A DNA stretch of 44,347 nucleotides, the filler included, from Bdellovibrionota bacterium (GTDB taxonomy: Bacteria > Bdellovibrionota > Bdellovibrionia > Bdellovibrionales > JAEYZS01), in NCBI GenBank assembly GCA_963169515.1. It is 3 parts of 3 records of this genome, joined end to end, with 100 filler letters (N's around TTAATTAATTAA, not from the genome) between each part and the next. Parts side by side here need not be neighbours in the genome. Positions count along the whole stretch, not along the records: positions 1 to 20,887 come from CAUJEF010000168.1; 2 more parts are not named here. One strand, written 5' to 3'. This document shows, piece by piece, positions 1 to 20,345 of this stretch; position 1 is the stretch's first letter; each line of letters starts with the position of its first letter. The translations under genes were made by a program, and so were the position numbers. The notes under the pieces were generated by a model that saw only the letters and a list, made by a program, of their open reading frames with translations, did no database searches and was not told the DNA's origin.

Positions 1-198
1 GAATCCATCGCAATTGACGATAATATTAAAATCACAGTTGTCCAAATCAAGGGCAAACAGGTGCGTTTAGGGATTCAGGCGCCAAAAGACACCAAAATCC
101 ATAGGGAAGAAGTTTACTTGGCCATCCAGGAGCAAAATAAAGAAGCTGTTACCAGCTCTGATAACGCGCATCGCGTTGCCAAACTTTTGAAGCCTTAA
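1..198 (+). CDS. csrA: Carbon storage regulator CsrA (5'-truncated by window edge)
   Basis: Frame 1 translates as [39 protein letters not shown]..., carrying the CsrA signature VRLGIxAP...IHREE; directly upstream of fliW. Absent from the ORF track. Confidence 0.95.
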
Positions 199-4878: not shown

Positions 4879-5337
4879 GTGGAAAAAAATTTAGATCAAA
4901 AGAAATTGATACAAATTTTAGATAAAGTTCGTAAAAATCAAAAAGTCGTTTTTACGAAAGGATGTTTTGATATCCTGCATGTCGGACACATTCGATATCT
5001 TCAGCAGGCAAGAGCATTGGGAGATTTGCTGATCGTTGCCGTAAATACAGATGCATCTGTTAGAAAACTGAAAGGTGAAAAGCGTCCCGTACAGAATGAA
5101 AAAGATCGGGCAGAAATTATTGCGGCGCTGGAATGTGTAAGTTTTGTCACATTATTTTCGGAAGACACTCCAGAAGTTTTAATTCACACCGTGAGGCCTG
5201 ATATTTTGGTTAAGGGTGGCGATTGGAAGGAAGATCAAATTGTTGGGTCTAAGTTTGTAAAATCCTATGGCGGGTCTGTAAAATCCCTTCCGTTTGTTGA
5301 AGGGAAATCTACAACGAATATTCTTAAAAAAATTTAG
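4879..5337 (+). CDS. rfaE2: D-glycero-beta-D-manno-heptose 1-phosphate adenylyltransferase
   Basis: [35 protein letters not shown]. Confidence 0.92.
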
Positions 5338-6062
5338 TTCCGATAGCCCAGTTTTACGCTAAATGTGGGTTGCGCGTATTGGTCAACTTGAGCTGCAATA
5401 AAAAATTCATCAAAGTGCACAGTGCCGCCAAGAACAGAATGAAAAGTGCTGATAATATTGATTTTGTTTGATTGTGATCCATTTTCAATGGCAACAATGC
5501 CACCAGGACCGCCGATAAATTCGCCACGTGAGCGTAACTGACCCGCGCCCAAATAGACCGAAAAGTTACGAACATTAATTCCGGCCACAAGATCATAACC
5601 AACCGATTGGTTGATGATTTGATTATTAATGTTGCATGTATTCATGTGAACGACAGCTGAAAAATTGGCTGGGAAATATTTAGTTTGGTAAAATCCGTAT
5701 CGAAGAAGTGCTCCGTAAACGCTTAGGCCTGTTCCTTCATTAAAGGGCATAAAGTTTAGAAACGAATCAAAATTGTTAAACAAACCTTTGCCAATTGAAA
5801 TAATTGGGTAGGTGAATTGATCCTGTTCTTCGGTGGTGGCGCCCAGGTGCGCGATTTCGTCAATTGCGATGGATTCGACTGACAAGCCAACTTCAAACCC
5901 TGCGTATCCGCCGAGGGGATAGGGGTCTGTTAAAAGCTTTGTGCTTGTACCATGTCCTAAAACTTCGAGTGCTTTATTTCGGTCTGTTGAAGTCAGATTT
6001 GTAGGTAAATTAACTTTCGAAAAAGAGGATGATACCAGTAAAGATAACAGAACAAGCCACAT
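5334..6062 (-). CDS. Exported protein, probable outer-membrane beta-barrel
   Basis: Signal peptide, amphipathic beta-strand pattern, C-terminal KLGYRN. Confidence 0.55.
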
Positions 6063-6112
6063 ATCTTATCGTGCCATGGTGGCCGATGTGGTTGCAAGTA
6101 ATTGCGTCTGCA

Positions 6113-7156
6113 TTAAGATTTTAACAACTGTTCTAAGATTTGAATTGTTTCTTGGAATATGGCTTGATTCGATGTACGTCCGCTCGCCAAAATGGATTGT
6201 ATCGCTGTAAAGGATTGTTCGTAGACTCGAAGATTGCGGGATGAAATGGCTCGGATCGGTGTCTGCGATGGACCCGGGGATGGTTGCGGAGCATTGGGGT
6301 CCTGTTGTGGTTTTAATTTCAACATATCCAAAGCTGATTCCCGAATCAGCTTCACTGCTTGAAATTGAATTCCAGCGTCTATGGAATAGATTTGATTGTT
6401 TAGCACATGAACGAGTTCGATTTTTTTATATGACATAATTACATCTCGAGCGTTGTCGGCATTCGTGTTATTCGAAGATTCGCGCTCGATAAATTTAACC
6501 GTTCTATCAAAACTCTGCGGGCTTGGGGTGGCATTCAATGCAATTAAACCAAGCTCTTGCACTTTCATTTCATCACTTTTTATAAGCTCATCAACGACAG
6601 CATAAAAAAGCTCTCCCGTGATAAGACCGGATTGGAAGCTCAAAATCAAATTATCCAGAGCTTCCTTGTTTACAGGATTTGTTAAACGCTTCATCCATCC
6701 TTCAACATCAGTTGGTGTTTCGTTTTGTGATTCTGTTGAAGCTACATAGGGAACTGGGTATGTCGCTTCAGCAATACGGGTGCCATTTGTATTGGCTGAA
6801 TGAGGTCGACCATTGTTGTTCACGATTTGAACATCAAAGCCCTTTCGTTTTAATTTTCGCGCAATTTTTTTCTTTTTCTTTTTAAGATCTTCTTTTTTCT
6901 TTGCGGCGGTTACAGCGGGTTTCGTTGGAACAATTTGGCCTGGCGATTGAAGGTTCTTACGATCCGATTCAGCCATTGCATGCCCCTTCCATGTTGACGT
7001 GTAGGCGTCGCGCAGACGCTGCAATTCTTGACTGACGGGTTCGATTTCGCTTATTTTTTTCACTTTGCGATTATTCGTCGCCACTGGTTCCCTTGATGAG
7101 TTCAAGTATCCGATGACCAGCAATCCTACTGCTATAAAAAATAGTCCTTTTTTCAT
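6113..7156 (-). CDS. Membrane-anchored hypothetical protein (Lys-rich linker, helical C-domain)
   Basis: Long ORF with N-terminal TM (MKKGLFFIAVGLLVIGYL) and a poly-K tract. Confidence 0.65.
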   Translation of the reverse strand: MKKGLFFIAVGLLVIGYLNSSREPVATNNRKVKKISEIEPVSQELQRLRDAYTSTWKGHAMAESDRKNLQSPGQIVPTKPAVTAAKKKEDLKKKKKKIARKLKRKGFDVQIVNNNGRPHSANTNGTRIAEATYPVPYVASTESQNETPTDVEGWMKRLTNPVNKEALDNLILSFQSGLITGELFYAVVDELIKSDEMKVQELGLIALNATPSPQSFDRTVKFIERESSNNTNADNARDVIMSYKKIELVHVLNNQIYSIDAGIQFQAVKLIRESALDMLKLKPQQDPNAPQPSPGPSQTPIRAISSRNLRVYEQSFTAIQSILASGRTSNQAIFQETIQILEQLLKS

Positions 7157-7368
7157 GCTTCGCAATCGTTGATCTGCTTAGAGTAAGACCAACTACTTCC
7201 TCTCTATCTGGTGGTATACGCAAAGGTAAGACCACTCTAAGTCCTTGAATTTACATAAATTTTGAATTGCCCCCAAATTTTCACTTGTTGAATGGGTGCA
7301 CACATGACATCATGAAACGAAAATATCATAGAGATTTTAGGTGTTTACATCCTTATGGGCAGGAAAAG

Positions 7369-8241
7369 GTGACTGACAAAATTGGGTCCTTATTAAAATC
7401 TAAAAAATATGATGATTATCAGGCGTTTGCACAGCTTTTAACGGAAATCGATCGGGCTGGGATTCAGACATTGAAATACAAAGACCTCATAAATCCAAAA
7501 AGGCTTGCTTTTAGAATTGGGATTACGGGTCCGCCCGGAGCTGGAAAATCCACTTTGATTTCAGCTCTGATTCAGGAGTTCAGAAAACAAAATTTGAAAG
7601 TTGGCGTTTTGGCCGTGGACCCCAGCAGCCCCTTTTCACAAGGCGCTTTATTGGGCGATCGAATTCGATATGCTGAGGCTTTGAACGATCCTGAGGTCTT
7701 TGTTCGTTCGATCGGTTCAAGGGGAAGTCCCGGCGGGTTAAGTGCATCAAGCTACCTGTTATTAAAGGGTTTTGATGCTTGGGGCTTTGATATTGTGATT
7801 ATTGAAACGGTGGGCGTGGGGCAGACAGAGCTTGAGGTCGTAAATGTAGCCGATCACGTTGCCGTTGTGCTCGTTCCTGAAAGTGGCGATGGAATACAGT
7901 TAATGAAGGCCGGACTTATGGAAATTGCAAACACATTTATTGTGAATAAGTCAGACCGACCGGGAGCTGATAGTCTTGTGAATGAACTCAATCATTCGAT
8001 AAAAATGGACGAAAAAAAAACGCCTGTGTTTCAGACTGTGGCAATAGATAAAAAAGGTGTTGAAAACGTCGCACAATATTTTATCAAAATGAAGAAATCA
8101 GATTACCAAAAGCACAGGTACGCGATCGGAAAAATTAAGTCCGAGGGACAGGCGTTGCTTCGCTTCAAGCACGAAAAGAAGATTCAAGAAGCCACACGTC
8201 AAATCAGATCCGTTAATGATCTTGCCAAGCTCTTTATTTAG
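7369..8241 (+). CDS. meaB: MeaB/ArgK-family GTPase (methylmalonyl-CoA mutase chaperone)
   Basis: GITGPPGAGKST, AVDPSSPFSQGALLGDRIR, IETVGVGQ, VNKSD; GTG start at 7369 inferred from AGGA RBS. Confidence 0.9.
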   Translation: MTDKIGSLLKSKKYDDYQAFAQLLTEIDRAGIQTLKYKDLINPKRLAFRIGITGPPGAGKSTLISALIQEFRKQNLKVGVLAVDPSSPFSQGALLGDRIRYAEALNDPEVFVRSIGSRGSPGGLSASSYLLLKGFDAWGFDIVIIETVGVGQTELEVVNVADHVAVVLVPESGDGIQLMKAGLMEIANTFIVNKSDRPGADSLVNELNHSIKMDEKKTPVFQTVAIDKKGVENVAQYFIKMKKSDYQKHRYAIGKIKSEGQALLRFKHEKKIQEATRQIRSVNDLAKLFI

Positions 8242-8270
8242 CTGTCTAATTTTCTGATTTGGAGGAATCT

Positions 8271-8822
8271 ATGAAAAAAATGATGCTTGCGTTCGTTTTA
8301 CTTTTTGGAATCAGTGCCAATGCAGCTCAGATGTCGGTATCTGGGGCGATTGGATTTTTTAGTGTTGGAAATTCATTTGTGAATGACAACAATGCACAAA
8401 CTGCAATGGCAGGGCTTTCTGGCCTTGTAACATTAGGTGCTGATTTTGAGTATGCTCCAGATAAAGATTACTCTTACGGTGCGTATCTTAGATACCATGG
8501 CACGGGTGATGATTATGGTACGACAGATTTGTCGTTTTCAAATTTAGCACTTGGAGCAATGGCAAAAGGTTATTTGAATTCACGCAATTGGAATTTCTAT
8601 TACGGAGCAGGGATTGGAATTGTATCGGTTTCGTATGAAGCAGGAACTGCGGAGTTTACCCCTGGAATGACATTTGGTCCGATGCTAGTAATTGGCGGCT
8701 TGTATCCATTGAGCGATCGTTTGTCTATGGGTATCGAGAACTTGCGGTTGTACGCTCTTGGAGAAGATACCAACGGCGAGATTGTGTCTGATTGGGCAAT
8801 CAAAGCAAAATATGATTTTTAA
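8271..8822 (+). CDS. Small outer-membrane beta-barrel protein
   Basis: GGAGG RBS, signal peptide ending ANA, beta-strand pattern, terminal aromatic motif AKYDF. Confidence 0.8.
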   Translation: MKKMMLAFVLLFGISANAAQMSVSGAIGFFSVGNSFVNDNNAQTAMAGLSGLVTLGADFEYAPDKDYSYGAYLRYHGTGDDYGTTDLSFSNLALGAMAKGYLNSRNWNFYYGAGIGIVSVSYEAGTAEFTPGMTFGPMLVIGGLYPLSDRLSMGIENLRLYALGEDTNGEIVSDWAIKAKYDF

Positions 8823-8832
8823 GCTAGGAACT

Positions 8833-9543
8833 TTAGCGGGCTCCAATTTTAAATGTTGAAAACATATCGCGATGGATTTCCATCGCGATTTTCATAAATG
8901 CTTCTTTGTCCTGAGCAGACATGTTTATGAATTCCACTCCCAAACGGGTAAGGCCGCTTCCTTTGGATCCGTAGCTTGCAATATGACGAACAATTGCTTC
9001 ATACGACTTGTTGAATGTATTGCCCACCATAATTACCCCGCGAATGATGTCACCTTTGGTTAGCTTAATATCCAAATGTGCAGTAGATTCAAATGCGAAC
9101 CCACCCGAGCTTAAATCAGCCAGGGGTAACTTCAGAATTGCTGCATTATCACCAATTTCTGAAATTGTTACGCGTGCGCCGTACCCAACGGGAATTGAAA
9201 CGCGGAAGCTATTCCGTCGCTGTAGTTTATAAAGAATATTATTCGTATCGATATAGTAAAAGTCATGGCCCTGGCGATGCAGGGTTGTTTTTAAAAAATA
9301 TTTTTCCTGTCCAATTTCAAAGGTGACTATGACCTCTTCCTTGTTGCTCATTATGGGTTGGATTATCGGTGTTAAAATTAGACGTGAATCTTTTAGTAGC
9401 ATCGGTCTGCATCGGACAAGTTCTTTGTTCAATAATTGAACTTGGACTTCTTCTCTGGCCTCAATGATAAGTGTATATGCGCGCTGACGTTCTGAGCGTG
9501 TATCAACTTTTGAAAATATGTTTTGGCCACCAAGGTTTTCCAT
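8833..9543 (-). CDS. PilZ-domain c-di-GMP receptor / YcgR-like flagellar brake
   Basis: QRRNSFR (RxxxR) and DLSSGG (DxSxxG) motifs. Start uncertain (9543 or 9582). Confidence 0.85.
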   Translation of the reverse strand: MENLGGQNIFSKVDTRSERQRAYTLIIEAREEVQVQLLNKELVRCRPMLLKDSRLILTPIIQPIMSNKEEVIVTFEIGQEKYFLKTTLHRQGHDFYYIDTNNILYKLQRRNSFRVSIPVGYGARVTISEIGDNAAILKLPLADLSSGGFAFESTAHLDIKLTKGDIIRGVIMVGNTFNKSYEAIVRHIASYGSKGSGLTRLGVEFINMSAQDKEAFMKIAMEIHRDMFSTFKIGAR

Positions 9544-9551
9544 AAAGGGTT

Positions 9552-10118
9552 TTATGCCTCTCGTTTTAGAAACGTGAGCCACTCGTCTGGAGCATCAATG
9601 GGTGAAATTGACAAGCGTAGCGAAGGCAACCATTTGGGCTCAAAAGGAAGCCGACGTAAATTGATTTGGGCTTCGTCAAGAGTTTGATTTGCTTTTTCTT
9701 GGTTACATGGACGGCATGCGGTAACGATATTTGTCCAATCTTTGCAGCCCCCCCTGGATGCTGGTACGACATGATCGAGGGTTAAATCTTTTGGATGAAA
9801 TTTTCTCATACAGTATTGGCACCTATGGCCGTCTCGGATATAAACATTTTCTCGCGAAAATCTTATTTTAGGATGCTCGCGTATTCGAACATACTTTTTT
9901 AATCGGATCACGCTTGGCAGTTGAAATCTATTATATACACTCCTTGCAAACGCATCATGAACTTCGATAATTTCGACTTTGTCTTGAAACCACAAAATAA
10001 GAGCTTTCTGCCAATTGACAACCTTGAGCGGTTCGTAACTTGAATTTAGAACTAAAGCCCTGGCTTGAATTTCGTTGAAGGCTTTCCCCCTCTCACTTGA
10101 CTCGCACCCCATCCCCAT
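9552..10118 (-). CDS. HNH endonuclease (McrA-like)
   Basis: LVLNSSYEPL, PSVIRL, RDGHRCQYC, TLDHVVPASRGG...WTNIVTACRPCN. Confidence 0.9.
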   Translation of the reverse strand: MGMGCESSERGKAFNEIQARALVLNSSYEPLKVVNWQKALILWFQDKVEIIEVHDAFARSVYNRFQLPSVIRLKKYVRIREHPKIRFSRENVYIRDGHRCQYCMRKFHPKDLTLDHVVPASRGGCKDWTNIVTACRPCNQEKANQTLDEAQINLRRLPFEPKWLPSLRLSISPIDAPDEWLTFLKREA

Positions 10119-10163
10119 TATCCGAAAACAGTGGGTACTTCAGCAAGTCCAGGCACATATTAA

Positions 10164-10190
10164 TAATCGGTTTTTGCTGCTTAGTTTTTA
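10164..10190 (-). promoter_or_regulatory. Sigma28-type promoter for the HNH-PilZ operon
   Basis: Minus strand TAAA-N15-ACCGATTA. Confidence 0.7.
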
Positions 10191-10235
10191 TCAAATTTTT
10201 CCCCTTATCCTTTTAAAAACAATCCGTTAAAAGAA

Positions 10236-10568
10236 CTAGACCTCACGATTTAATTTTGTCCCTTTCTGATTCATTTTTGGAGGTTCGGCTTTGTAAGCCC
10301 TTCTGCCATTACTCAGCTTATGGTGATTTGTGTAATCTTTCTTCTTCTGGCGCTCCCGTTTTTTCTGCAAAAGATCAATGACATAGTGGGAAGGTTCTGT
10401 TTGGAAAGAATGGTGGTCTCCATTTTTCACGGCTTCACCCTCGACACCAATGACCGGTGAGACACCTTTTGATTTTTTGAATTCTACTCGCTCGAAGTTA
10501 TTAACAGGTTGAAAGCTATCTGGTGTTAGCCCTATGACCTTCATTAGATCGCCCCCGGCGATTAGCAT
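10236..10568 (-). CDS. Small basic hypothetical protein
   Basis: ORF downstream of a near-consensus sigma28 promoter; true start may be the internal Met at 10544. Confidence 0.55.
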   Translation of the reverse strand: MLIAGGDLMKVIGLTPDSFQPVNNFERVEFKKSKGVSPVIGVEGEAVKNGDHHSFQTEPSHYVIDLLQKKRERQKKKDYTNHHKLSNGRRAYKAEPPKMNQKGTKLNREV

Positions 10569-10606
10569 TGTTAAGTTCTAAGACCCTTTTTAAAGGGTCA
10601 TTGCAC

Positions 10607-10633
10607 TTATCGGCATTATAATGCAATACGTTA
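10607..10633 (-). promoter_or_regulatory. Sigma28-type promoter (leftward)
   Basis: Minus strand TAAC-N15-GCCGATAA. Confidence 0.8.
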
Positions 10634-10669
10634 AGTATTTGTATTAATTTGATATTACTTTGAAAAGAC

Positions 10670-10696
10670 TAAAGTATTAACGCTATGCGCCGAAAA
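10670..10696 (+). promoter_or_regulatory. Sigma28-type promoter of flagellin-1
   Basis: TAAA-N15-GCCGAAAA. Confidence 0.85.
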
Positions 10697-10793
10697 GTTC
10701 AATGACTGCTAAATGAACCATGTCTGTGAGCCTCATACATGTCTATTTTGACCTCAAGTGGGATTGAGGCCTTGAAGGAACGTAGGAGGATCT

Positions 10794-11630
10794 ATGGCTC
10801 TCAGGATTAATACCAACGTGGCGGCACTGTCCGCTATGAGACACTTATCAAAACAAGAGGACCAGGTGCAACACGCCTTAGGCGCGTTGGCTTCGGGGTC
10901 TCGAATTGTTCGTCCGGGCGATGATGCTGCGGGATTGGCAATTAGTGAGAATTTGCGGGGTCAAATCGCTGGCTTAAAGCAAGGGGGCCGAAACGCTGAA
11001 AATGCGATTTCATTGGTCCAAGTTGCTGAAGGCGGCCTCAACGAACAAAATAACATTTTAATTAGATTAAGAGAACTTGGTGTTCAAGCGGCGAGCGATA
11101 CTGTATCTGATGTCGAGCGGGAATTTTTAAATGAGGAGTTTGCGCAGCTTACTCAAGAGTTTGACCGTATCGCACGTTCAACGACATTCGGAAATAAAAA
11201 ACTTCTCGAGGGGAGTGGCGGGGATTTCGTATTCCATGTTGGCCCTAATGCGGGAGAAGATAATCAAATTTCCTATACACTCGATGCGGATGCCACAGCG
11301 TCTACAATGGGCGTTGATGGAATGGATATAGCAGACAAAGATGGGGCAAATGATGCATTGGAATCCATTGATTCTGCGCTAGAAAAGCTAGCTGGTATTC
11401 GAGCAAATTTTGGTGCGATCCAAAGTCGATTATCGACAGCTGCAAGTAATACTGCAATTCAGGTGGAAAATGTATCGGCGGCGAAATCTCGCTTGTCTGA
11501 TGCAGATGTTGCAGAAGAAGCTGCGAAGTTTGCGCAAGGGCAAGTGTTGCAAGATGCAGGTGTGGCTGTTCTTGCGCAAAGCTCAGTATTGCCAGCGCGA
11601 GCAAGTAAATTAATCAGTTCAGTATTCTAA
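10794..11630 (+). CDS. fliC: Flagellin (copy 1 in window)
   Basis: MALRINTN...SGSRI...DDAAGLAISE and RANFGAIQSRL...SRLSDAD; short flagellin with almost no variable domain. Confidence 0.97.
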   Translation: MALRINTNVAALSAMRHLSKQEDQVQHALGALASGSRIVRPGDDAAGLAISENLRGQIAGLKQGGRNAENAISLVQVAEGGLNEQNNILIRLRELGVQAASDTVSDVEREFLNEEFAQLTQEFDRIARSTTFGNKKLLEGSGGDFVFHVGPNAGEDNQISYTLDADATASTMGVDGMDIADKDGANDALESIDSALEKLAGIRANFGAIQSRLSTAASNTAIQVENVSAAKSRLSDADVAEEAAKFAQGQVLQDAGVAVLAQSSVLPARASKLISSVF

Positions 11631-11643
11631 CCGGGGCGGGCGT

Positions 11644-11739
11644 AAAAGGTACGCCGTTCCCTTTCAGGAGACTATGCATTATTTTCCTGAAATACAGATC
11701 ACAATGCGCCGTTTCCTGAAAGGGAACGGCGTACCTTTT
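11644..11739. repeat. 26-bp perfect inverted repeat (terminator / REP-like element)
   Basis: AAAAGGTACGCCGTTCCCTTTCAGGA (11644-11669) and TCCTGAAAGGGAACGGCGTACCTTTT (11714-11739), 44-nt spacer. Confidence 0.85.
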
Positions 11740-11839
11740 TAAGACTGACCTAGACCTAGGTCGAAAAAACTTTCAAAGTAAAAAACAAGTATTTTTAAAC
11801 ACAAGACGCAACGCGTTTTATAATTACTCGACTAAGGTA

Positions 11840-11866
11840 TTAAGTTTTCTAGACCAAGGACGAGAA
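11840..11866 (+). promoter_or_regulatory. Probable sigma28-type promoter of flagellin-2
   Basis: TTAA-N15-GACGAGAA (degenerate match). Confidence 0.5.
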
Positions 11867-12047
11867 GTTAAGCGAACACGTTGGAGCAAAGACGATGGTT
11901 CATTTAGCAGTCACTGAATGTACCGTTGTTGTTCCTAAAAGAACCTCCAGCACAGCAAAACGTTAACAATTGCCACAGTTGTGGCTAAGGCACAAGTGCG
12001 CTTAGAGGAGCGAACTCTTGTTGTCAAAAAGATCTAGGAGGTCTTTT

Positions 12048-12875
12048 ATGGGCTTAAGAATTAATACAAATATCGCCTCGATAAATGCTCAACGTCAGTT
12101 GGGTAAGCAGTCAGCACGAACTAACCATGCTCTTGCTGCAATGTCTTCCGGTAGCCGCATCGTAACAGCAGCTGATGATGCTGCTGGATTGTCTATCTCG
12201 GAAAATATTAAAGGACAAACACGCGGTTTAAAAATGGCAAAATACAATGCCGAAAACGCAGTGTCGTTAATCCAAGTGTCTGAAGGTGGATTAAACGAAA
12301 TCAGTAACATCTTAATTCGTTTGCGCGAATTGGGTGTGCAAGCAGCTTCTGATACCGTGTCAGATGTAGAGCGAGGCTTCCTGAACCTAGAAGCTACGCA
12401 ACTCGTTGAAGAGGCAGATCGAATTGCGAAAACCACACGATTCGGTAACAAAACGCTGCTCGATGGAGCTGGCGAAGAATTAGAGTTCCATGTTGGACCG
12501 TTCGGTGGTGCAGAAAATATTGTTTCTTACAAAATAACTGCCGATGCAACTGGTTCAACTCTAGGTTACGATGGAATCCAAGTTGATTCCAAAGACTCAG
12601 CCCGGGACACTCTTCAAAAAGTTGACGATGCCATCAACCAAATCGGAGCTCTTCGAGCGGATTTCGGCGCAGTACAAAGTCGTATGAATTCGACATCAAG
12701 CAACCTTGATATTCAATACGAAAACTTGGCTGCAGCCAATTCCCGACTTCGTGATGCTGATATTGCTTACGAATCTGCGGAGCTTGCTTCATCGCAAGTT
12801 CTCAACAATGCAGCGGTAGGTGTATTAGCGCAAGCGAATACAGTCGGAAATCAAGCGTTGCGTTTGCTTAACTAA
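12048..12875 (+). CDS. fliC: Flagellin (copy 2)
   Basis: AGGAGG RBS; MGLRINTNIASINAQR...; flagellin N- and C-terminal motifs. Confidence 0.97.
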   Translation: MGLRINTNIASINAQRQLGKQSARTNHALAAMSSGSRIVTAADDAAGLSISENIKGQTRGLKMAKYNAENAVSLIQVSEGGLNEISNILIRLRELGVQAASDTVSDVERGFLNLEATQLVEEADRIAKTTRFGNKTLLDGAGEELEFHVGPFGGAENIVSYKITADATGSTLGYDGIQVDSKDSARDTLQKVDDAINQIGALRADFGAVQSRMNSTSSNLDIQYENLAAANSRLRDADIAYESAELASSQVLNNAAVGVLAQANTVGNQALRLLN

Positions 12876-12886
12876 TAACAAATTAG

Positions 12887-12921
12887 CTTTTCGAAGGGTA
12901 TAAACCCTTCGAAAAATTTTT
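12887..12921 (+). terminator. Hairpin after flagellin-2
   Basis: TTTTCGAAGGG-TATAAA-CCCTTCGAAAA followed by A/T run. Confidence 0.65.
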
Positions 12922-12929
12922 ACAAATTT

Positions 12930-13020
12930 GAGAACGACGGCTCACAGACACTTAAAGTGAAGACATGGCTGACGTTCTTAAGCCCGCCCTGGGTAACCCC
13001 ACATTACCCAGGGTTTTTTT
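12930..13020 (+). ncRNA. Candidate structured sRNA or extended 3' UTR ending in an intrinsic terminator
   Basis: Stem AGAACGACGGC/GCTGACGTTCT, then CCCTGGGTAA-N7-TTACCCAGGG plus T-run; contains complements of the flagellin-1 UTRs. Confidence 0.45.
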
Positions 13021-13119
13021 CATGTCGATAAGTTCGACGAAACAGTCATTATAAATTCACCTAAATGTTCTGAAAGTGTGCACAGGAATTGCTTTAATCG
13101 CTCGCATTAAAGGGAATTT

Positions 13120-15687
13120 ATGACGACAATCAACCTGGAACGGAAAGCGCGCCAATTTTTGTTCCTTAAGACATTTACTGTACCAATTATTTTGCTGACG
13201 ATTTTACTGATATCGCTGCTAGTTCAGACGGTAAGCGCGGAGCAAATTAAGCCGGCACGATTTGATAGGCCACCGCACGTGGTGTTTTTGATTCACGGCC
13301 TTTTAGGTGATCCGACGACGTTTGGTGATATGGAGGCTCTCTTACGGGAACGATATCAGTCGGAAAATGTTCGTATAAAGACGTTGTTTTATCCGTCAAT
13401 CCCAGGGCAAGGTGATACAGAAAAGATCAATGCATTTACCCCTCTGGATTTTGCAAAGATTATAAATTCACAAATGATTAGTTACTTGATCGAAGAGGGT
13501 GTCAAAGATAAACAACAAAATCGTCCATACCCAATTGACATAAATACGCCCATTTCCTTCATCGTCCACAGTCAGGGTGGTGCGGTCGTATTGCACTATC
13601 TGAACTCGTGTTACAGGAAGAATCTACAACAGCCACGCTGTTTTTACGACGAAGGCGTTCAGCTGATGGCAGACGCAGGCTGGTTTAAGTCTGGTGGTCC
13701 ACAGTGGCTCTCCCAAGCGTGGCCTAATTTACAAAAAGAGTTAAATTCAAATTTGGTTCTTAAAAATGTTGATCCACCATCAAATATTCATACCTTTGTT
13801 AGCTTGGCTTCTCCATTCTGGGGATCTGCCGCTGCAAATAAATTAGTTGCCATCAATAACAACAATAAACTTCACAAATTGACAATTGGTGATTTTGTAC
13901 CAGGAAATGGCAACGACATAATTGAAAAACTTAACCTTCCGCTCGGCCAAATCAAAAACCTGTCCATGGGCAGCGAGTCTGTTGCGTGGGCACGTAGTCT
14001 TATGTTGGATCGAAATGCTGTGGATACTGAAGAGCATTGGACATCCAATACTCGATGGAGGAGCCGTTATCCTAAAACCTTAAAAGTATACAATGTAGCG
14101 GGGGTTATCACTGGCTTGCATAAGAGCATAAAAAATGCTGTTCAACGCCAGATTTTAAAGTTTGAAGAAATGGAAACAGACGTTGTTGTCAGTGCGCCAG
14201 AAGCCCGTCTTGATTTCATATACTACATCGAAAACTCAGACCCAAAGAAGAGTCCATTGAGCGGACGTACAAACTTGGGCAAAGGATATTATCCGGTTGC
14301 AAGTGCACATTTGCCTGGTTTAGAAATGGCAGCAATTGATATTCAGGGAATTGCCACTGTAACACGAGCGAATCAAAGCAATCATTTGGGGTTTACAGTG
14401 ACAAAGAGAGCATTGGATTTTGAGTTTGGTTTGGCACAAAGTGCTGATCTAACGCAAGAGGAAAAGGATAAGTTCTTACTGCCAAAGCTTCAAAATTTTA
14501 CAGTCGATTTGAAATTATTAACTCCACCTGGATATTTTCGACAATTTGGCATTATGGAAAGCAATGTTAGAATTACCCCAGAAAAAAATGTGTTTGAAAG
14601 CATAAAAGTAGGTGGAACATTAGTGTTGGATACAAATGGTCAAAACTTTGATGGTGTTAAAGCCAAGAGCAATTATTATCAAACCTATTACCATGTCGGT
14701 CGCTTTGATGAAAAGCATGCATACCTTCCGAGAAAAGAAAGTTTAGAAAGTGCGATTCAAAGAGAGGGTTTGGTAAGGCTTGATTATAAATTCGATCTTT
14801 TGGGTTTTGAGCTTAAAAGTCCAGATAAAATATTTCGCATAGATGTATTTCCGACATTAAGTTCGTACGGTGAATTTTACATTCAACCGTATCAACCAAT
14901 AAAACCAGCGAGACTCCAGGATGAGGACGGCAATGTATATTTGGCGCGTGTCGCAGGCGATGCAAAAAACGATGTTATTTTATATATGGATGTAAATAAT
15001 AATTTGCACCGCGATGTTTTTCCAAAGGGAAAGGTTGCGACAAATTTGTTGCCAGCCTGCAGAGTTGCATTGCTGGGAAAAAAATCTCCCGGCTTCCATC
15101 GTCAGAAGAAACTAAATTATTTTCAATGGATAAGGCTTGCGAATAACACAGGATTTTTGCAGCCCACATTTTCGGCAGATGACCAGTTTCGAGATACTCT
15201 GCTGGAGAGTTTTGCGGAAGAAAACGGTGAAAAAATAGACTATGCAATGCCATTGGAAATCATTGGCCGTTATAAAACGACAATTGTAGATAGATATTTG
15301 CGTGATTATATACAGCAAGAGAGAAAGAAATTTGAGAAAATGTCTGATTTTGAACAAAATATTTATCTTGCAGAACATCCGGACATTGATTTGAATTCTG
15401 ATGGATCACGAATATTCGATAGATATTTAGTAACGGCTCCAATCATTCGACGATTCGATTCCTCGAAAAGTATGAGCCAAATAAAAATGAATGACCTGGG
15501 TCCTAATAATCAAGGTTTGCGTTGGGTGAACGTAGTGGATGTTGACGTTTTGAAATATGTGCACGTAATACACCCTGACACGGGTGGATTGATCAGCGCG
15601 CCAATCGATAATCATTGTTTAGGTGATAGTTCTCCGTTTCAATACGCACCAAAATCAAAGTTTCGAAAGCTTTATTACGCAGAGTAA
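13120..15687 (+). CDS. Secreted alpha/beta-hydrolase (lipase-like) with large unassigned C-terminal region
   Basis: Signal peptide; FLIHGLLG, IVHSQGG (nucleophile elbow), SLASPFWGS, DVVV. Confidence 0.75.
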   Translation: MTTINLERKARQFLFLKTFTVPIILLTILLISLLVQTVSAEQIKPARFDRPPHVVFLIHGLLGDPTTFGDMEALLRERYQSENVRIKTLFYPSIPGQGDTEKINAFTPLDFAKIINSQMISYLIEEGVKDKQQNRPYPIDINTPISFIVHSQGGAVVLHYLNSCYRKNLQQPRCFYDEGVQLMADAGWFKSGGPQWLSQAWPNLQKELNSNLVLKNVDPPSNIHTFVSLASPFWGSAAANKLVAINNNNKLHKLTIGDFVPGNGNDIIEKLNLPLGQIKNLSMGSESVAWARSLMLDRNAVDTEEHWTSNTRWRSRYPKTLKVYNVAGVITGLHKSIKNAVQRQILKFEEMETDVVVSAPEARLDFIYYIENSDPKKSPLSGRTNLGKGYYPVASAHLPGLEMAAIDIQGIATVTRANQSNHLGFTVTKRALDFEFGLAQSADLTQEEKDKFLLPKLQNFTVDLKLLTPPGYFRQFGIMESNVRITPEKNVFESIKVGGTLVLDTNGQNFDGVKAKSNYYQTYYHVGRFDEKHAYLPRKESLESAIQREGLVRLDYKFDLLGFELKSPDKIFRIDVFPTLSSYGEFYIQPYQPIKPARLQDEDGNVYLARVAGDAKNDVILYMDVNNNLHRDVFPKGKVATNLLPACRVALLGKKSPGFHRQKKLNYFQWIRLANNTGFLQPTFSADDQFRDTLLESFAEENGEKIDYAMPLEIIGRYKTTIVDRYLRDYIQQERKKFEKMSDFEQNIYLAEHPDIDLNSDGSRIFDRYLVTAPIIRRFDSSKSMSQIKMNDLGPNNQGLRWVNVVDVDVLKYVHVIHPDTGGLISAPIDNHCLGDSSPFQYAPKSKFRKLYYAE

Positions 15688-15856
15688 GTGTTTCCTCGCC
15701 CCCCGTCCCTTGTCCTGGCTATCTTAGTCGAGTATGACCTTCTTCTCGGCTAGGAATTTCTGCTCCTATTTAAGAAATCTTTAGACCAACGTACCTGGAA
15801 CTCAAAACCTTGGTCCAGTTTTCCTATGACATTGGTCCAGTTCTGCTCGACGCGAC

Positions 15857-15883
15857 TTCAGTCGCCTAGACACTGGCCGAAAG
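15857..15883 (+). promoter_or_regulatory. Sigma28-type promoter of flagellin-3
   Basis: TTCA-N15-GCCGAAAG. Confidence 0.6.
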
Positions 15884-16098
15884 GTTAATCGTGAATGCGA
15901 TCGAAATTGAGAGAGTGATCAGCTTCCTTCGAGTGACTGCGAGGGGTAGTAAGTAAACGAAGCTCTTGAGATTGAAAATCAAATTTGCAAAACCAATGTG
16001 TTCAACCCCGGCAATGATTGCCAGGCTTGCCAAGGCTTATATGGGTAAGATCCTTGGCAGGCTCGAGAATTGATTCTCAAAATTTATAGGAGGCCATC

Positions 16099-16932
16099 AT
16101 GGGTCTTAGAATTTCCACAAACCTTCCGTCCATTAATGCTCAAAGGCATTTGGCGGGAAACCAAATCAATATCAGTAAAGCGTCTGCTCAACTTGCTTCA
16201 GGCAGTCGTATTACAAAGGCTGCAGACGATGCAGCTGGATTATCCATCAGCGAAGGATTCAAATCTCAAATCCGCAGCTATAAAGCAGCGTCACGAAACG
16301 CAGAAGATGCAGTGAGTTTGTTGCAAGTAGCAGAGGGTGGTTTATCTGAAACTGCAAACATCATGACTCGTATGAGAGAGTTAGCAATCCAAGCTGCCTC
16401 TGATACAGTGAGCGATGTTGAGCGTGGCTACATTAACTACGAGGTAAAACAACTTGTGGCTGAAGCGGACCGCATTGCTCAAAGTACGCGTTTTGGCCAT
16501 TCAAATCTATTAGATGGTACAGCTCAGGTATTCGATTTCCAAGTAGACACAGGTGACGATGATTTCAAAGACAGAATTTCTTTTGACGGTGGTCAATTGA
16601 ATGCAACTGTTTCTAACCTTGGTGTTGATGGTGTTGATTTCACATCTAAAGGTGGTGCGCGTGATGCACTGGTAAAATTAGATAGTGCTACAAATCAAAT
16701 CAATGGTTTTAGGGCAACAATCGGTGCAGTCCAAAATAGATTGCAATCGACCCAAGCAAACCTTGCCACGGCCCATGAAAGTTTGTCGGCAGCAAATTCA
16801 CGGTTACGTGATGCGGACATTGCGGACTCTTCTGCGGAGCTAACCAAAAGCGGTATTTTATTGAATGCTTCAACAATGGTTCTTGCGCAAGCAAATCAAC
16901 ATCCAGCTTTAGCACTTAAGCTAGTTGGATAA
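16099..16932 (+). CDS. fliC: Flagellin (copy 3)
   Basis: AGGAGG RBS; MGLRISTN...SGSRITKAADDAAGL...RATIGAVQNRL. Confidence 0.97.
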   Translation: MGLRISTNLPSINAQRHLAGNQINISKASAQLASGSRITKAADDAAGLSISEGFKSQIRSYKAASRNAEDAVSLLQVAEGGLSETANIMTRMRELAIQAASDTVSDVERGYINYEVKQLVAEADRIAQSTRFGHSNLLDGTAQVFDFQVDTGDDDFKDRISFDGGQLNATVSNLGVDGVDFTSKGGARDALVKLDSATNQINGFRATIGAVQNRLQSTQANLATAHESLSAANSRLRDADIADSSAELTKSGILLNASTMVLAQANQHPALALKLVG

Positions 16933-16946
16933 ACTTAGAAATCTGT

Positions 16947-17011
16947 AAAAAAGGGGAGCGGCCTCCGTTCCCTTGGTACCTTACCCATCCGGAGGGGGGT
17001 GACCTCTCCGG
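16947..17011. terminator. Two GC-rich hairpins between convergent genes
   Basis: AGGGGAGCGG-CCT-CCGTTCCCTT preceded by an A-run; CCGGAGGGG...CCTCTCCGG. Confidence 0.55.
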
Positions 17012-17040
17012 TGGTATTTCGCTGGCCATACGGTGTTATG

Positions 17041-17931
17041 TTATGGCTGAAAGAATTCGTGGGAATAACGGCCGGCTTGGTGCTCTTGTGTTATGTATTC
17101 GTTTATTGATAGCCTTGCATTTGAAAGCGTTCTTAAGAAAAAAGTCTTATAGGTTGGTTCAATATCTCGTGCTTTTTTGACCTGTTTAATTGCAGCAGCG
17201 ATTTCATGGTCCGAAATTCCCTGTAAAAAAGTCCACTCTGCCGTCATGGCCCCCATTTCGCCGATATACTTTAGCTCATTTGAGGCTCGATCAGAAATTT
17301 TTACGTCATGATTATCGAAGGCCGTGGAAAGTCGAATATGCTGAATGGCGTGTTCCATTTCGTGGGCAAACAAATACGCATGGAGAAGTGTGCCTTTATA
17401 TTGGTTTGGCATTTCAAAATAAATAATTTGATCTTTGGGTAAATACGCTGCTGTTAGATCATCGGCATCGTCTTCTTTTCCTAGGATTGGGCTATTGACC
17501 CAGTTTACGGACATGAATATTTTCTCTAAGGCTTTTCTCTGGATATCACTAAGCATTGTAATTCGAGCTTTCAAATACATTTCAAATGCAACATCAAGAT
17601 TTCGCTTGGATTGAGTGTATCCGCCCATTCCAGTTCGGACTTGTCCAATGGTCGTCTTATAATTTAAAAGTATTTTTTCAAGCGTAGGATATTTTGTTAC
17701 AAAGGTTTTCGAGTCTTTTTTGCGTGATTTGGATTCAAAGCTTTTAACCAGCTTTACTTGCTCAGAAACAGTTACAATTGAAATATTTGAAAAAACACTT
17801 TGGCAGACCAATGCATGAGCATGGCTTGAAAACAAAAATAAAATCCCCCAGACTAACCAGCGCAACCCTATACCCCAATTTCCTAAAGATCCAGGAACAG
17901 TCATAGCAGAGGATACGTCTGAAATAATCAT
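17041..17931 (-). CDS. Secreted hypothetical protein with HExxH zinc-peptidase motif
   Basis: Signal-like segment ending AHA; FAHEMEHAIQ with downstream E (GEMGAM). Start uncertain. Confidence 0.55.
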   Translation of the reverse strand: MIISDVSSAMTVPGSLGNWGIGLRWLVWGILFLFSSHAHALVCQSVFSNISIVTVSEQVKLVKSFESKSRKKDSKTFVTKYPTLEKILLNYKTTIGQVRTGMGGYTQSKRNLDVAFEMYLKARITMLSDIQRKALEKIFMSVNWVNSPILGKEDDADDLTAAYLPKDQIIYFEMPNQYKGTLLHAYLFAHEMEHAIQHIRLSTAFDNHDVKISDRASNELKYIGEMGAMTAEWTFLQGISDHEIAAAIKQVKKARDIEPTYKTFFLRTLSNARLSINEYITQEHQAGRYSHEFFQP

Positions 17932-18053
17932 TTTAGTTCGAATTTGCAGGTTTTATAAGTAGTTACAATGATGTTCAAAATAAGCATTAATGACCCGTAT
18001 ATGAATTACTTATAATTCATCCGAACTTTGGTCTAAAAGTCTTGTAGAGTATT

Positions 18054-18080
18054 TAAACATTTCAAGTGAAATCCCGATTG
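18054..18080 (+). promoter_or_regulatory. Probable sigma28-type promoter of flaG-fliD-fliS
   Basis: TAAA-N15-CCCGATTG. Confidence 0.55.
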
Positions 18081-18089
18081 CTATTACGA

Positions 18090-18464
18090 ATGAATATCAG
18101 ATCAGTGGGGCCGAATTTGACCCCGTTAGAGATTAAAAAACCAGAAGTGTCTAAAGAGACAAAATTAGACAGTTCCCAAGAGCGTGATGCCCAAGTATTT
18201 TATCAAAATGGAAAAGAGCAAGAGAGGCGAAAGCTGACCGAAGAAGAGCTTCAAGAAGCGATGAAGCATTTGCAAGGGTTGCCATTTGTTAAGGATAACA
18301 ATTGGGCCATTCGTCTTGAACGAGTCGGCGAAATAGTCACAGTTTTTGTTGAAGATAACACTGGAAAAATAATTCGAAGGATACCAGAACAAGACCTTTG
18401 GGGGCTTATTTCTCAGCAAAATAATGACCAAAACAAGGGTAACCTTTTTAACAAGGCTATTTAG
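18090..18464 (+). CDS. flaG: Flagellar protein FlaG
   Basis: VFVEDNTGKIIRRIPEQ motif; located before fliD. Confidence 0.8.
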   Translation: MNIRSVGPNLTPLEIKKPEVSKETKLDSSQERDAQVFYQNGKEQERRKLTEEELQEAMKHLQGLPFVKDNNWAIRLERVGEIVTVFVEDNTGKIIRRIPEQDLWGLISQQNNDQNKGNLFNKAI

Positions 18465-18532
18465 GCTCACCCTAAGACCAATGCCATATATTTGACTCAC
18501 AAAAATTCATTAAAATCATTGAAAATAAGTAT

Positions 18533-19930
18533 ATGGCGATATCATTTGGCGGCATCAATACGGGCCTACCTCCGAATCTGGTCGATCAGTTGATCGATGC
18601 GGAACGCTTGCCAATTAAAACTCTCGAAGCAAAAAAGACTAAAATTGAATCGAAGCTAAAACATGTAAACGATCTCGAAGAGAAAATTCGTGGAATCGGT
18701 GGGTCGCTAAAGGAACTTGCGGGTACTAAGGGATTCACGGATATGAAAGTGTTTTCAGGGGATCCCAACATTGTTTCTGGAGCGGCAGACCCTAATATTG
18801 TTCGAAATGGCAGTTGGAATATCGAAGTAATGCAACTTGCGAACAAGGCGTCTGCGATCACCAATGGGTTTCCGGATAAAGACACGGCAGAAATAGGAGT
18901 GGGGTACTTTTCATTTGAAACACCAAGCGGAACAAAAGAAGTTTATATTGATGGTGAGAATAATACTCTTGAAAAGGCTGCAGCTAAAATAAACAATTCA
19001 GGCCTGGGTTTGCAGGCTACAGTAATCAAAGATAGCACGGAAAAGGATGCCCCCTGGCGCCTGATGATCTCTGGCGTATCTGTGGGAGAAGGCAACGAGG
19101 TAAAATATCCGACGTTATATTTTCTGGATGGGGATCAAGATATTTATTTCGATAAACAGCGTGATGCTCAAAATGGGAAAATAAAACTCGACGGATTTGA
19201 AATTGAAGTCGACAAAAATAAGCTCGACGATTTGATTCCTGGGGTGTCGCTTGATATTAAGCAAGCTGCGCCGGGAAAAGAAATTAATATTAGTGTTGGT
19301 GAGGATACGCAAATCGTTGGTGGCAAGATCAAGTCATTCGTTGAAGCAATGAACAACGTCTTAAGCTACATCCAATCGCAGAGTCGCCTAACGGAAAAGT
19401 CAGACACAAGCGGGAATTTGATGGGCGATGGAATTATACGTCGTTTGCAAAATGACATCCGTAACTTGATTCAAAGTCCGCAGTATTCTGTAAAAGGAAA
19501 CATCAAGTCGCTAAATCAACTTGGCATTCAGTTCAACAGAGCCGGTACGCTAGATTTTAATGAGGAAAACTTTAACAAGATTCTCACTGGTCAGGTCGAC
19601 GACGTGCGTGCGTTTTTTGTGGGCGATGGTTATGGCACAGGATTTATCGATGCCATAAAGGGATTTGTAGACCGCACGGTGTCCAATGCATTTAGCCCTA
19701 TTGCAAACAAAAGGAGTGGTTTGCAACAAGAGATTCGTACAGCCGATCAAAAAATAGAAAACTTAGAGAGAAATCTTCAAATCAAAGAAAAAAATTTAAG
19801 AAGGAAGTTTGCAAACCTTGAAGAAACAATGTCCAAACTGAAAACTCAGGGCGATCAGATGGCTGCGCGGTTAGGCGGAGGGGGAGCGGGGGCATTAAAT
19901 CTGGGTGGCGCAAGCATGACATCAACATAA
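18533..19930 (+). CDS. fliD: Flagellar filament cap FliD
   Basis: ISFGGINTGL...LIDAER, IEVMQLA, LRRKFANLE. Confidence 0.95.
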   Translation: MAISFGGINTGLPPNLVDQLIDAERLPIKTLEAKKTKIESKLKHVNDLEEKIRGIGGSLKELAGTKGFTDMKVFSGDPNIVSGAADPNIVRNGSWNIEVMQLANKASAITNGFPDKDTAEIGVGYFSFETPSGTKEVYIDGENNTLEKAAAKINNSGLGLQATVIKDSTEKDAPWRLMISGVSVGEGNEVKYPTLYFLDGDQDIYFDKQRDAQNGKIKLDGFEIEVDKNKLDDLIPGVSLDIKQAAPGKEINISVGEDTQIVGGKIKSFVEAMNNVLSYIQSQSRLTEKSDTSGNLMGDGIIRRLQNDIRNLIQSPQYSVKGNIKSLNQLGIQFNRAGTLDFNEENFNKILTGQVDDVRAFFVGDGYGTGFIDAIKGFVDRTVSNAFSPIANKRSGLQQEIRTADQKIENLERNLQIKEKNLRRKFANLEETMSKLKTQGDQMAARLGGGGAGALNLGGASMTST

Positions 19931-19946
19931 AAAGTAGAGGAAAAAA

Positions 19947-20345
19947 TTGAGCAAACATGCGTATCAAAAATACAAAGAGTCCCAGGTGCTCAGCGCGAGC
20001 AAAGAGACTCTGCTTTTGATGTTGTATGAGGCGGCTATCAAATTTACAAAAAAGGCGATCATTGCAATCGAAAAAAAGGATATTGCCGGTCGAGGTGAAA
20101 ATGTTGGAAAGGCTTATGACATCATAATGGAGCTCAATAATACCCTAGATCACAAAGTTGGTGGAGAAATTGCAGCAAATTTAGAGCGTCTGTATAATTT
20201 TATTACTGAACAACTTGTAAAAGCGAACATCAAAGGTGATCCAGAACCTTTACATTCGAGCGTTAAAATTTTAGAGAACTTATATGAAGGATGGAAGGGC
20301 GCAGTTGAGAAACTTAAAACGGAATCGAGGGGGAAAAGTGGATAA
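19947..20345 (+). CDS. fliS: Flagellin export chaperone FliS
   Basis: LLMLYEAAI, ELNNTLD, GGEIAANLERLY, LYEGW; TTG start after GAGGA. Confidence 0.95.
   Translation: MSKHAYQKYKESQVLSASKETLLLMLYEAAIKFTKKAIIAIEKKDIAGRGENVGKAYDIIMELNNTLDHKVGGEIAANLERLYNFITEQLVKANIKGDPEPLHSSVKILENLYEGWKGAVEKLKTESRGKSG

Follow-up and report, generated by a model that had tools for sequence, protein, structure and literature searches.

The stretch of DNA analysed here (the window, 44,347 nucleotides (nt)) consists of three parts of the genome of an uncultured Bdellovibrionales bacterium (assembly GCA_963169515.1, 2.38-Mb in 173 contigs). The first part, positions 1–20887, is one contig (CAUJEF010000168.1) and carries a cluster of flagellin genes, of which there are six in the whole genome. 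Two of them, fla1 and fla2, are paralogues with 57% identity, and each lies behind its own FliA (sigma-28)-type promoter (Table 1). The start of the predicted fla1 message is complementary to a hairpin in the untranslated leader of fla2, and because the two sites have changed together across an order of predatory bacteria, we suggest that flagellin messages pair directly to coordinate filament production.

Positions 10703–10721 are the exact reverse complement of 11895–11913 (19/19), both by reading of the sequence and with a repeat finder. The full arms, 10698–10721 and 11895–11918, are 24 nt long, 96% complementary (23/24) and 1173 nt apart, and pairing continues past a bulged G11894, where 10722–10725 pairs with 11890–11893. 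An earlier note on the window had described the 19-nt core, its extension to 23/24 and the four further pairs across a 1-nt bulge, and all three are found as stated. The extended pairing also appears in blastn as a self-match of 31–32 nt at 91%. When up to three mismatches are allowed, the 19-mer has only these two sites in the window, and shuffled sequences give an expectation of 0.04 matches, with none of 100 shuffles giving two or more. The whole assembly likewise holds only two sites for the 19-mer, and control patterns gave none. The match between fla1 and fla2 is real and chance is no explanation for it, because there are only two copies in the genome and the expectation from shuffling is 0.04.

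The position of the match relative to the start of each message was estimated by analogy with the promoters of Bdellovibrio bacteriovorus. In a published promoter study (PMC3627812), TTAAG-N16-CCGATA occurs in 92 of 140 attack-phase promoters, and in its supplement the start mapped for Bd0606 is at the 8th nt past the -10 8-mer, with a 5′ untranslated region (UTR) of 164 nt. By this analogy we infer that the fla1 mRNA starts at G10704, and that of fla2 would start at G11874 and have a UTR of 174 nt. The first 18 nt of the fla1 mRNA, counted from G10704, are complementary to the 5′ arm and CAGUCA loop of the fla2 hairpin. The earlier claim that the 5′ end of the fla1 mRNA is itself the 19-nt antisense holds for 18 of the 19 core bases; T10703, and with it 10698–10702, lies upstream of the start proposed here. 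In relatives the spacing between the -10 box and the sequence NGACTG is constant at 6 nt. Of the six bases of NGACTG, the last five form invariant pairs, while the first varies and has no partner (25 T, 3 A and 2 C among the 30 pairs described below). The variable first base and the fixed spacing support transcription starting at the G. The fla2 promoter is conserved both in an alignment of 12 leaders and in pattern matches.

The fla2 leader has a predicted folding energy of −59.3 kcal/mol (z = −3.44). The hairpin drawn in the earlier note is reproduced in the minimum free energy (MFE) fold, where it extends over 11883–11935 with CAGUCA, 11908–11913, as its loop. With z = +0.73, the fla1 leader shows no unusual degree of structure, and its first ~48 nt are unpaired in the centroid fold. 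For the intermolecular duplex between the 5′ end of fla1 (the seed) and the hairpin in this genome, an energy of −41.2 kcal/mol is predicted. Cofolding gives a net gain, after opening of the hairpin, of −16.8 to −17.1 kcal/mol, compared with −2.2 for shuffled seeds (best −10.0).

The region was compared by blastn with 40 relatives, and the region upstream of fla2 is conserved across families. In order, the 12 aligned leaders show the FliA promoter, GAACACGUUGGAGC, the hairpin and, further down, a CUCCAAC-like motif; the loop of the hairpin, CAGUCA(C), is conserved and its stems are variable. In the same relatives the upstream flagellin gene has a FliA promoter followed by 6 nt and then by NGACTG and an arm that complements the 5′ arm of the hairpin in its own genome. 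Examples of seed arm and hairpin arm are CTGATTGAGTTT / AAACTCTGTCAG and, from the same genus, CTGATAGAGAAT / ATTCTCTGTCAG, as well as TTGAAAGGGTT / AACCCTTTCAG and TAAAAGGGATC / GGTCTCTTTTA. There is also a compensatory indel: relative to the common pair CTGAAATGAAC / GTTCATTTCAG, the present genome is without one G in the seed and without the matching C in the arm. Over arm positions 7–20 in 16 genomes, 11.94 of 14 positions are paired with the partner from the same genome against 9.21 between genomes (0/20000 permutations), and when one genus is collapsed the values are 11.77 and 8.82 (again 0/20000). Genomes G015, G027, G158, G159, G184, G185 and G326, which have a seed but no fla2 leader in the sequence examined, were left out of this comparison.

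A larger set was obtained by retrieving 78 loci from named Bdellovibrionales records with the fla1 protein; 33 of these have a fla2-type leader. Each was searched for the complement of the loop plus 10 nt of the arm (a 16-mer, with up to 4 mismatches). The best complement lies 1.07–2.2 kb upstream on the same strand in 27 of the 33, and 26 of those 27 are, by eye, directly behind a FliA-type promoter. The syntenic set comprises 30 pairs with distinct arms, weak pairs being kept. Positions 2–6 are invariant pairs, and at positions 7–17 the numbers of double-sided changes, out of 30, are 6, 4, 13, 7, 3, 13, 13, 13, 8, 14 and 12. Pairing averages 11.27 within a genome and 8.12 across genomes (0/20000 permutations), and is 4.7–7.4 when the partner is slid by 1–3 positions. 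The predicted energies follow the same pattern, with a mean net gain of −15.8 for partners from the same genome and −6.8 for cross-genome partners, the former not being reached in any of 20000 permutations; the gain is −5 or better in 30/30 pairs and −10 or better in 27/30. At locus L134, from the complete genome of a culturable isolate that has both a seed and a docking hairpin, the predicted net gain is −14.5 kcal/mol. Thus the substitutions are compensatory in the way expected of a base-paired RNA helix, beyond both the shuffled and the slid controls. The helix cells of the 30 pairs comprise 420 Watson–Crick pairs, 29 G·U, 6 other and no A·C. This excess of G·U over A·C (29 to 0) indicates that selection acts on two sense RNAs and not on the DNA. 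The geometry proposed in the earlier note, in which a loop and the adjoining 5′ arm meet an antisense 5′ end, is supported by its recurrence in many families of the Bdellovibrionales with two-sided compensatory changes.

Two pattern searches were also made. An order-wide pattern containing TAART matched 28 of 384; it is blind to TAAAGT-type promoters, including that of this genome, and so gives no prevalence, and 16 of the 28 matches are true fla1-type promoters by eye. A pattern for the fla2 leader matched in 10 of 18 chosen genomes, and its matches at L065 (genome G027), L070 and L072 were set aside as unlike leaders on inspection.

We consider, with good confidence, that the complementarity reflects a selected RNA–RNA interaction and that the two copies of the repeat are probably the halves of a duplex between two separate flagellin mRNAs. 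The fla1 message, transcribed from its FliA promoter, would open at G10704 with the unstructured GACUGCUAAAUGAACCAU. The fla2 message, from its own FliA promoter, would present the CAGUCA-loop hairpin ~20 nt into its 174-nt leader. First contact would be made between the 5′-terminal GACUG of fla1 and the hairpin loop, after which pairing would proceed down the 5′ arm and oust the less perfect 3′ arm of the hairpin. The end product would be a perfect duplex of 18 bp, or of about 24–30 bp with its imperfect extension. No chaperone should be necessary for this, because the duplex is long and perfect; Hfq (PF17209) was not found in the assembly, which is 96.5% complete. We infer that the duplex arises in trans in living cells and ties the fates of fla1 and fla2 mRNA to each other. 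Given that pairing occurs, action in trans rather than within a co-transcript is likely. Each gene has its own promoter, and complementarity is kept where other genes intervene, at distances of 3.7 kb (a 392-residue open reading frame (ORF)), 2.2 kb (165 residues) and 1.6 kb (133 residues, on the opposite strand); trans action is therefore favoured.

Several points weigh against this interpretation. The 5′ ends of the mRNAs, their physical pairing and any regulatory effect are all predictions, and the start sites lean on one mapped promoter, Bd0606, of another genus. The genomes compared are related, so that the permutation figures overstate their independence. The arrangement is not universal, a seed-type promoter being present in 0 of 13 genomes of the genus that resembles strain HD100 (the HD100-like genus), and in L087, L111 and L119 the pairing is weak or gapped (ungapped helices of 6–10). 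RNA data were available as contigs from two metatranscriptome runs of one study. The sole fla1 RNA contig near the 5′ end begins at 10726, past the seed, at a depth of ~4, the other fla1 contigs being fragments. Both fla2 contigs begin at 11893 and not at the predicted 11874; they have no loose ends, and DNA contigs continue across this point. The RNA contigs do not cover 10704–10725, 11632–11892 or 11874–11892, and for these intervals they are evidence neither way. A true fla1 start at 10726 would break the pairing model; since it lies 30 nt after the -10 box and the depth is only ~4, we take it for an end set by coverage or processing. An activation of fla2 by release of its Shine–Dalgarno (SD) region was also considered and rejected: blocking the docking site by constrained folding in the 33 fla2-type leaders gives no consistent gain in SD accessibility, the mean unpaired probability being 0.27 alone and 0.24 blocked (3 up, 8 down). 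Simple translational activation is therefore not proposed.

With regard to the RNA ends, 11893 and 10726 lie 27 and 30 nt after the respective -10 boxes, distances at which they are incompatible with the promoters as primary starts. They may be limits of coverage or processing ends, and 11893 may be where trimming stopped at the foot of the stable hairpin. There is a weak hint that both mark a staggered cleavage of one end of the predicted duplex, since G10722 pairs with C11893 and, by count, cuts at both ends would leave a 3-nt 3′ overhang. The predicted duplex is long enough for RNase III, whose staggered cuts call for ~20 bp or more, and the gene for this enzyme (rnc) is present in the genome, as are those for CsrA and FliW; the ends themselves come from the contigs of one study at depths of 4–6.5.

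Of the other explanations, the closest is that fla1 transcription reads through into the fla2 leader and that the two sites pair within one molecule, the resulting panhandle protecting its ends or regulating the co-transcript. The sites are on the same strand, 1.07–2.2 kb apart, with the seed always upstream in 27 of the 33 loci, and the covariation and G·U pattern would fit pairing in cis as well as in trans. We nevertheless regard it as unlikely: a conserved FliA promoter of fla2 lies a short way before the target, in this genome the two genes are kept apart by a strong palindromic repeat that resembles a terminator, and the complementarity persists over intervening genes, one of them on the opposite strand, and over as much as 3.7 kb. 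There is only a slight probability that the match is a by-product, the fla1 leader having descended or been gene-converted from the 3′ half of the fla2 hairpin, or both sites binding some third RNA or protein without ever meeting. The genes are indeed paralogous, and the 3′ arm of the hairpin resembles the fla1 arm in the sense orientation, with 10 of 14 positions identical in this genome. Sense homology could not, however, place TGACTG opposite CAGTCA, and two sites for one third RNA would be alike rather than complementary. In 14 of 16 genomes the fla1 arm is closer to the complement of the 5′ arm than to the 3′ arm (one tie, one worse), and this tracking excludes sense paralogy or gene conversion from the 3′ arm, in line with the earlier argument that paralogy is insufficient. 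The lineage of G241 keeps the intermolecular complement over 17 positions, while its 3′ arm, with 1 of 14 positions identical, bears no relation to the fla1 arm.

An origin at the level of DNA has also to be weighed, since an inverted repeat of 19–24 bp flanks a 1.17-kb segment that contains a flagellin gene together with the promoter of its neighbour, as would the ends of an invertible segment (a Hin/hix-like switch carrying fla1) or paired operators for one protein. A Pfam scan of the 16 ORFs at 5334–20787 found no recombinase family, the nearest unusual gene being one for an HNH endonuclease. In two runs both copies of the repeat are spanned by DNA contigs in the reference orientation, and no strand-changing joint was found in them, although contigs can miss rare forms. 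The arms, moreover, change between lineages and yet stay complementary, unlike a site recognised by a protein; a constraint on DNA does not produce the asymmetry of G·U and A·C; and the position of the repeat is fixed relative to the proposed transcription start. DNA inversion is thus very unlikely, and so is a DNA site of either kind. A chance match in AT-rich leaders, for which only the shortness of the match speaks, may be dismissed almost entirely. To the low expectation and the uniqueness in the genome is added recurrence with covariation in dozens of genomes; the judgement in the earlier note that chance was improbable has held, and this explanation is already refuted.

If the two messages do pair in trans, several outcomes can be envisaged, and we hold any particular one with low confidence. 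That which we prefer is that the duplex would remodel the 5′ portion of the fla2 leader or trigger its processing, would protect or trim the 5′ end of fla1, or would do both; the output of fla2 would then depend, we suggest with little confidence, on the level of fla1 mRNA. Otherwise pairing may lead to processing or decay of one or both messages, may protect the fla1 5′ end, may mask the conserved 5′ GUUGGAG element of fla2 (it contains a GGA motif, and the genome has genes for CsrA and FliW), or may co-localise the two messages.

The remainder of the fla2 leader was also examined. In the predicted fold the SD region pairs with 11937–11948. CCUCCAGC is in addition complementary to the 5′ GUUGGAG of the leader, and most of the 12 aligned fla2-type leaders have a motif like CTCCAAC. 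There are then three mutually complementary elements, namely 5′ GUUGGAG, CCUCCAGC (CUCCAAC in most relatives) and the SD region; the last reads GUUGGAGG in several relatives and is sequestered in the predicted fold. In these models the arrangement looks like a conserved anti-SD / anti-anti-SD system or a set of CsrA sites.

A further contact is suggested by the leader of the third flagellin gene, fla3, which has a hairpin whose loop is complementary over 9 nt to part of the fla2 hairpin (Table 1). In a survey of 215 distinct flagellin upstream regions from the retrieved loci, TGACTG was present in 82, ranking sixth among all hexamers, and CAGTCA in 64; the two occur together in only 3 leaders and neither is present in 72. 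Among 88 TGACTG sites, 47 are the promoter-proximal seed, and the other 41 are mostly hairpin loops with the consensus gAGUGACUGc. The loops of this third class of leader, gAGUGA(C/U)UGc, share 7–9 nt of complementarity with the CA(G/A)UCAC loops in leaders of the fla2 type; examples are found at L029, L096, L105 and L157 and in fla3 of the present genome. The loops covary, CAATCA accompanying TGATTG in 4 loci and CAGTCA accompanying TGACTG in 15. At L096 and L105 both kinds of partner are represented: the first hairpin, with CAGTCA, has the upstream seed as partner and the second, with CAATCA, has the TGATTG loop of a downstream flagellin. Judged from these loops, a kissing contact between fla2-type and third-class leaders is likely. 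In the present genome the single loop of the fla2 hairpin matches the loop of fla3 as well, and the fla2-type leader therefore looks like a hub that reads the messages of other flagellins.

The same loop pair is found in the HD100-like genus, where the first gene of a fliC1/fliC2-like pair has a leader with a CA(G/A)UCAC loop and the second has the matching loop; one species has CAAUCAC and GUGAUUG, another CAGUCAC and GUGACUG. Between the promoter of the second gene and that published for Bd0606 there is a single base difference. On this comparison, fla2 and fla3 of the present genome correspond to fliC1 and fliC2. An identification of fla1 with fliC1 (Bd0604) was rejected, the HD100-like pair making fla2 the counterpart of fliC1, and no counterpart of fla1 was found in the genomes of that genus that were searched. 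Across the genome, 22 hairpin loops contain CAGTCA and 19 contain TGACTG, compared with 12 and 17 for the reversed controls, which is no enrichment. A further partner elsewhere in the genome was therefore rejected, and the two motifs are regarded as specific to flagellin leaders.

A bolder and distinctly tentative extension, which we put forward as a possibility somewhat short of probable, is that the flagellin mRNAs of the Bdellovibrionales form a base-paired network with the fla2-type leader, the counterpart of that of fliC1, as a docking hub. One hairpin of the hub would take the 5′ end of a second flagellin mRNA by a long duplex, and another would take the loop of a third flagellin leader, the fliC2 counterpart, by a kissing contact. 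If true, such a network would set the ratio or order of flagellins, and hence the composition of a segmented filament, without a dedicated regulatory RNA.

A motif (C)TGTGGGC is present in 96 of the 215 flagellin upstream regions, often 20–26 nt after the seed. Pairing of TGTGGG(C) with the start-codon region, seen by eye, was rejected, since own pairing scored 6.94/9 and pairing across leaders 6.96, a score as high as the own one being obtained in 3072 of 5000 permutations.

The contig also encodes a PilZ protein, an HNH endonuclease, a DUF676 protein, flaG, fliD and fliS, and the runs containing the stretch are wastewater, biofilm and sludge metagenomes. The ORFs of 110 (directly upstream of fla1), 187 and 296 residues in the flagellin cluster match no Pfam or NCBIfam family, and the 855-residue protein encoded between fla2 and fla3 has only a weak match to the DUF676 esterases. 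The repeat between fla1 and fla2 is a near-perfect palindrome of 96 nt with arms of 37 nt that are 89% complementary by the repeat finder. Copies that are 76–88% identical lie on at least 9 other contigs of this genome, and in metagenome assemblies there are a spike in depth and contig breaks at the repeat. From its sequence it looks like an element of the repetitive extragenic palindrome (REP) or miniature inverted-repeat transposable element (MITE) kind that doubles as a terminator.

Table 1 Features of the flagellin cluster and its surroundings (positions are those of the window; starts and pairings are predicted)
Feature	Position	Strand	Details
csrA	1–132	+	cut by contig end
fliW	284–814	+	csrA/fliW ~10 kb upstream of flagellin cluster
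ORFs of flagellin cluster without family or with weak family	10236–10568; 8259–8822; 13120–15687; 17041–17931	− (10236–10568)	
fla1 FliA-type promoter	10670–10696	+	-35 TAAAGTAT 10670–10677, N11, -10 GCCGAAAA 10689–10696
fla1 mRNA 5′ seed GACUGCUAAAUGAACCAU	10704–10721	+	complementary to 11895–11912; weaker pairing on to 10728
TGTGGGC motif, CTGTGAGCC in this genome	10724–10732		in the window; also in many leaders in L004–L152
Flagellin 1 (fla1), 278 residues	10794–11630	+	Pfam Flagellin_N 3.3e-37, Flagellin_C 6.3e-17
Palindromic multicopy repeat between fla1 and fla2	11644–11739	.	terminator-like ends on + strand
fla2 FliA-type promoter	11840–11866	+	-35 TTAAGTTT 11840–11847, N11, -10 GACGAGAA 11859–11866
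Conserved fla2 leader 5′ end GAACACGUUGGAGC	11874–11887	+	start predicted at G11874
fla2 leader hairpin HP1	11892–11929	+	5′ arm and CAGUCA loop 11895–11913 form putative docking site; loop 11908–11913
AAAAGAACCUCCAGC	11937–11951	+	predicted pairing with fla2 SD region 12036–12041 (MFE and centroid folds)
Flagellin 2 (fla2), 275 residues from ATG 12048	12048–12875	+	Pfam Flagellin_N 2.5e-32, Flagellin_C 7.3e-22
fla3 leader hairpin CCUUCG-AGUGACUG-CGAGGG	15926–15945	+	loop complementary over 9 nt to GCAGUCACU of fla2 hairpin
Flagellin 3 (fla3), 277 residues	16099–16932	+	Pfam

Bacterial regulation by base-pairing is carried out mostly by small RNAs, and to our knowledge direct, conserved pairing between mRNAs is known from only a few single-species cases. 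For the flagellin pairing, the comparative evidence is of the type by which RNA helices are usually proven, and the genes so joined are paralogues that encode structural parts of a single organelle. Filaments of B. bacteriovorus contain several flagellins in a fixed order, FliC1 in large amount and then FliC2 in small amount (PMC2791853). The loop–loop pair described here joins precisely the counterparts of fliC1 and fliC2, so that a role in setting the order or ratio of flagellins is directly testable. No published description of flagellin mRNA pairing was found in the full-text literature, a search that leaves most subscription journals outside its coverage, and neither leader matched Rfam over 10300–13200 at E values up to 5. 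The sole Rfam matches there are sub-threshold and microRNA-like, five on the palindromic repeat and one at 10603–10700.

The closest analogue in mechanism is the RNA-IN/RNA-OUT pair of IS10/Tn10, in which a loop meets an unstructured 5′ tail and pairing then extends; the duplex is a substrate of RNase III (PMC4737173). In the flagellin leaders, too, a loop faces a single-stranded 5′ end whose complement continues down one arm of the hairpin, and this is conserved in the 30 pairs. RNA-OUT is, however, a dedicated non-coding antisense RNA made from the opposite strand of the same DNA, and its duplex covers the ribosome-binding site of RNA-IN. Here two paralogous genes, encoded ~1.2 kb apart on one strand, supply both partners as mRNAs, and neither ribosome-binding site is in the duplex. 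Each site has a promoter of its own, and sites and promoters are all on the + strand, so that this is not a cis-encoded antisense pair, and the complementarity would, unlike that of IS10, have evolved in trans. Nor does it have the form of an Hfq-dependent small RNA, as the seed opens the leader of a flagellin mRNA and a terminator scan gave no site between 10704 and 10794.

Pairs of mRNAs acting in trans include the hly 5′ UTR with prsA2 mRNA in Listeria and irvA with gbpC mRNA in Streptococcus mutans. As in those cases, the untranslated region of a coding mRNA would pair with another mRNA and couple their expression. Those pairs are, however, known in single species and join functionally linked but unrelated genes, whereas here the genes are paralogous and structural, the contact is between an extreme 5′ end and a loop, and the covariation extends across an order.

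In Campylobacter the flagellins are controlled by CsrA and FliW, and the flaA mRNA is both target and titrator. The present system resembles this in that late, FliA-dependent flagellar genes would be controlled through flagellin 5′ UTRs, with csrA and fliW in the window and GGA motifs in the leaders. The flaA mRNA, however, acts in trans by titration of a protein and not by base-pairing, and the other regulators are separate small RNAs, whereas no small RNA gene is evident here. These small RNAs include CJnc230 and CJnc170, linked to FliA and RpoN (PMC11187230).

In the Hin/hix system of Salmonella short inverted repeats flank ~1 kb of DNA beside a flagellin gene, and a recombinase acts on the DNA. 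The present locus differs in having no recombinase among the ORFs scanned, no inverted form in the contigs and an RNA-type pattern of substitution. The contact between the CAGUCAC and GUGACUG loops, a loop–loop complement of 7–9 nt between hairpins, is like that of the kissing-loop antisense pairs CopA/CopT and RNAI/RNAII. Those pairs are plasmid-borne and cis-encoded, whereas here the loops are in the leaders of different chromosomal flagellin mRNAs. None of the systems compared is known to have a conserved pairing of paralogous flagellin messages; here base-pairing RNA regulation would be carried out by the mRNA leaders themselves. Its design, a natural strand invasion of a hairpin loop by a 5′ end, parallels that of engineered toehold riboregulators.

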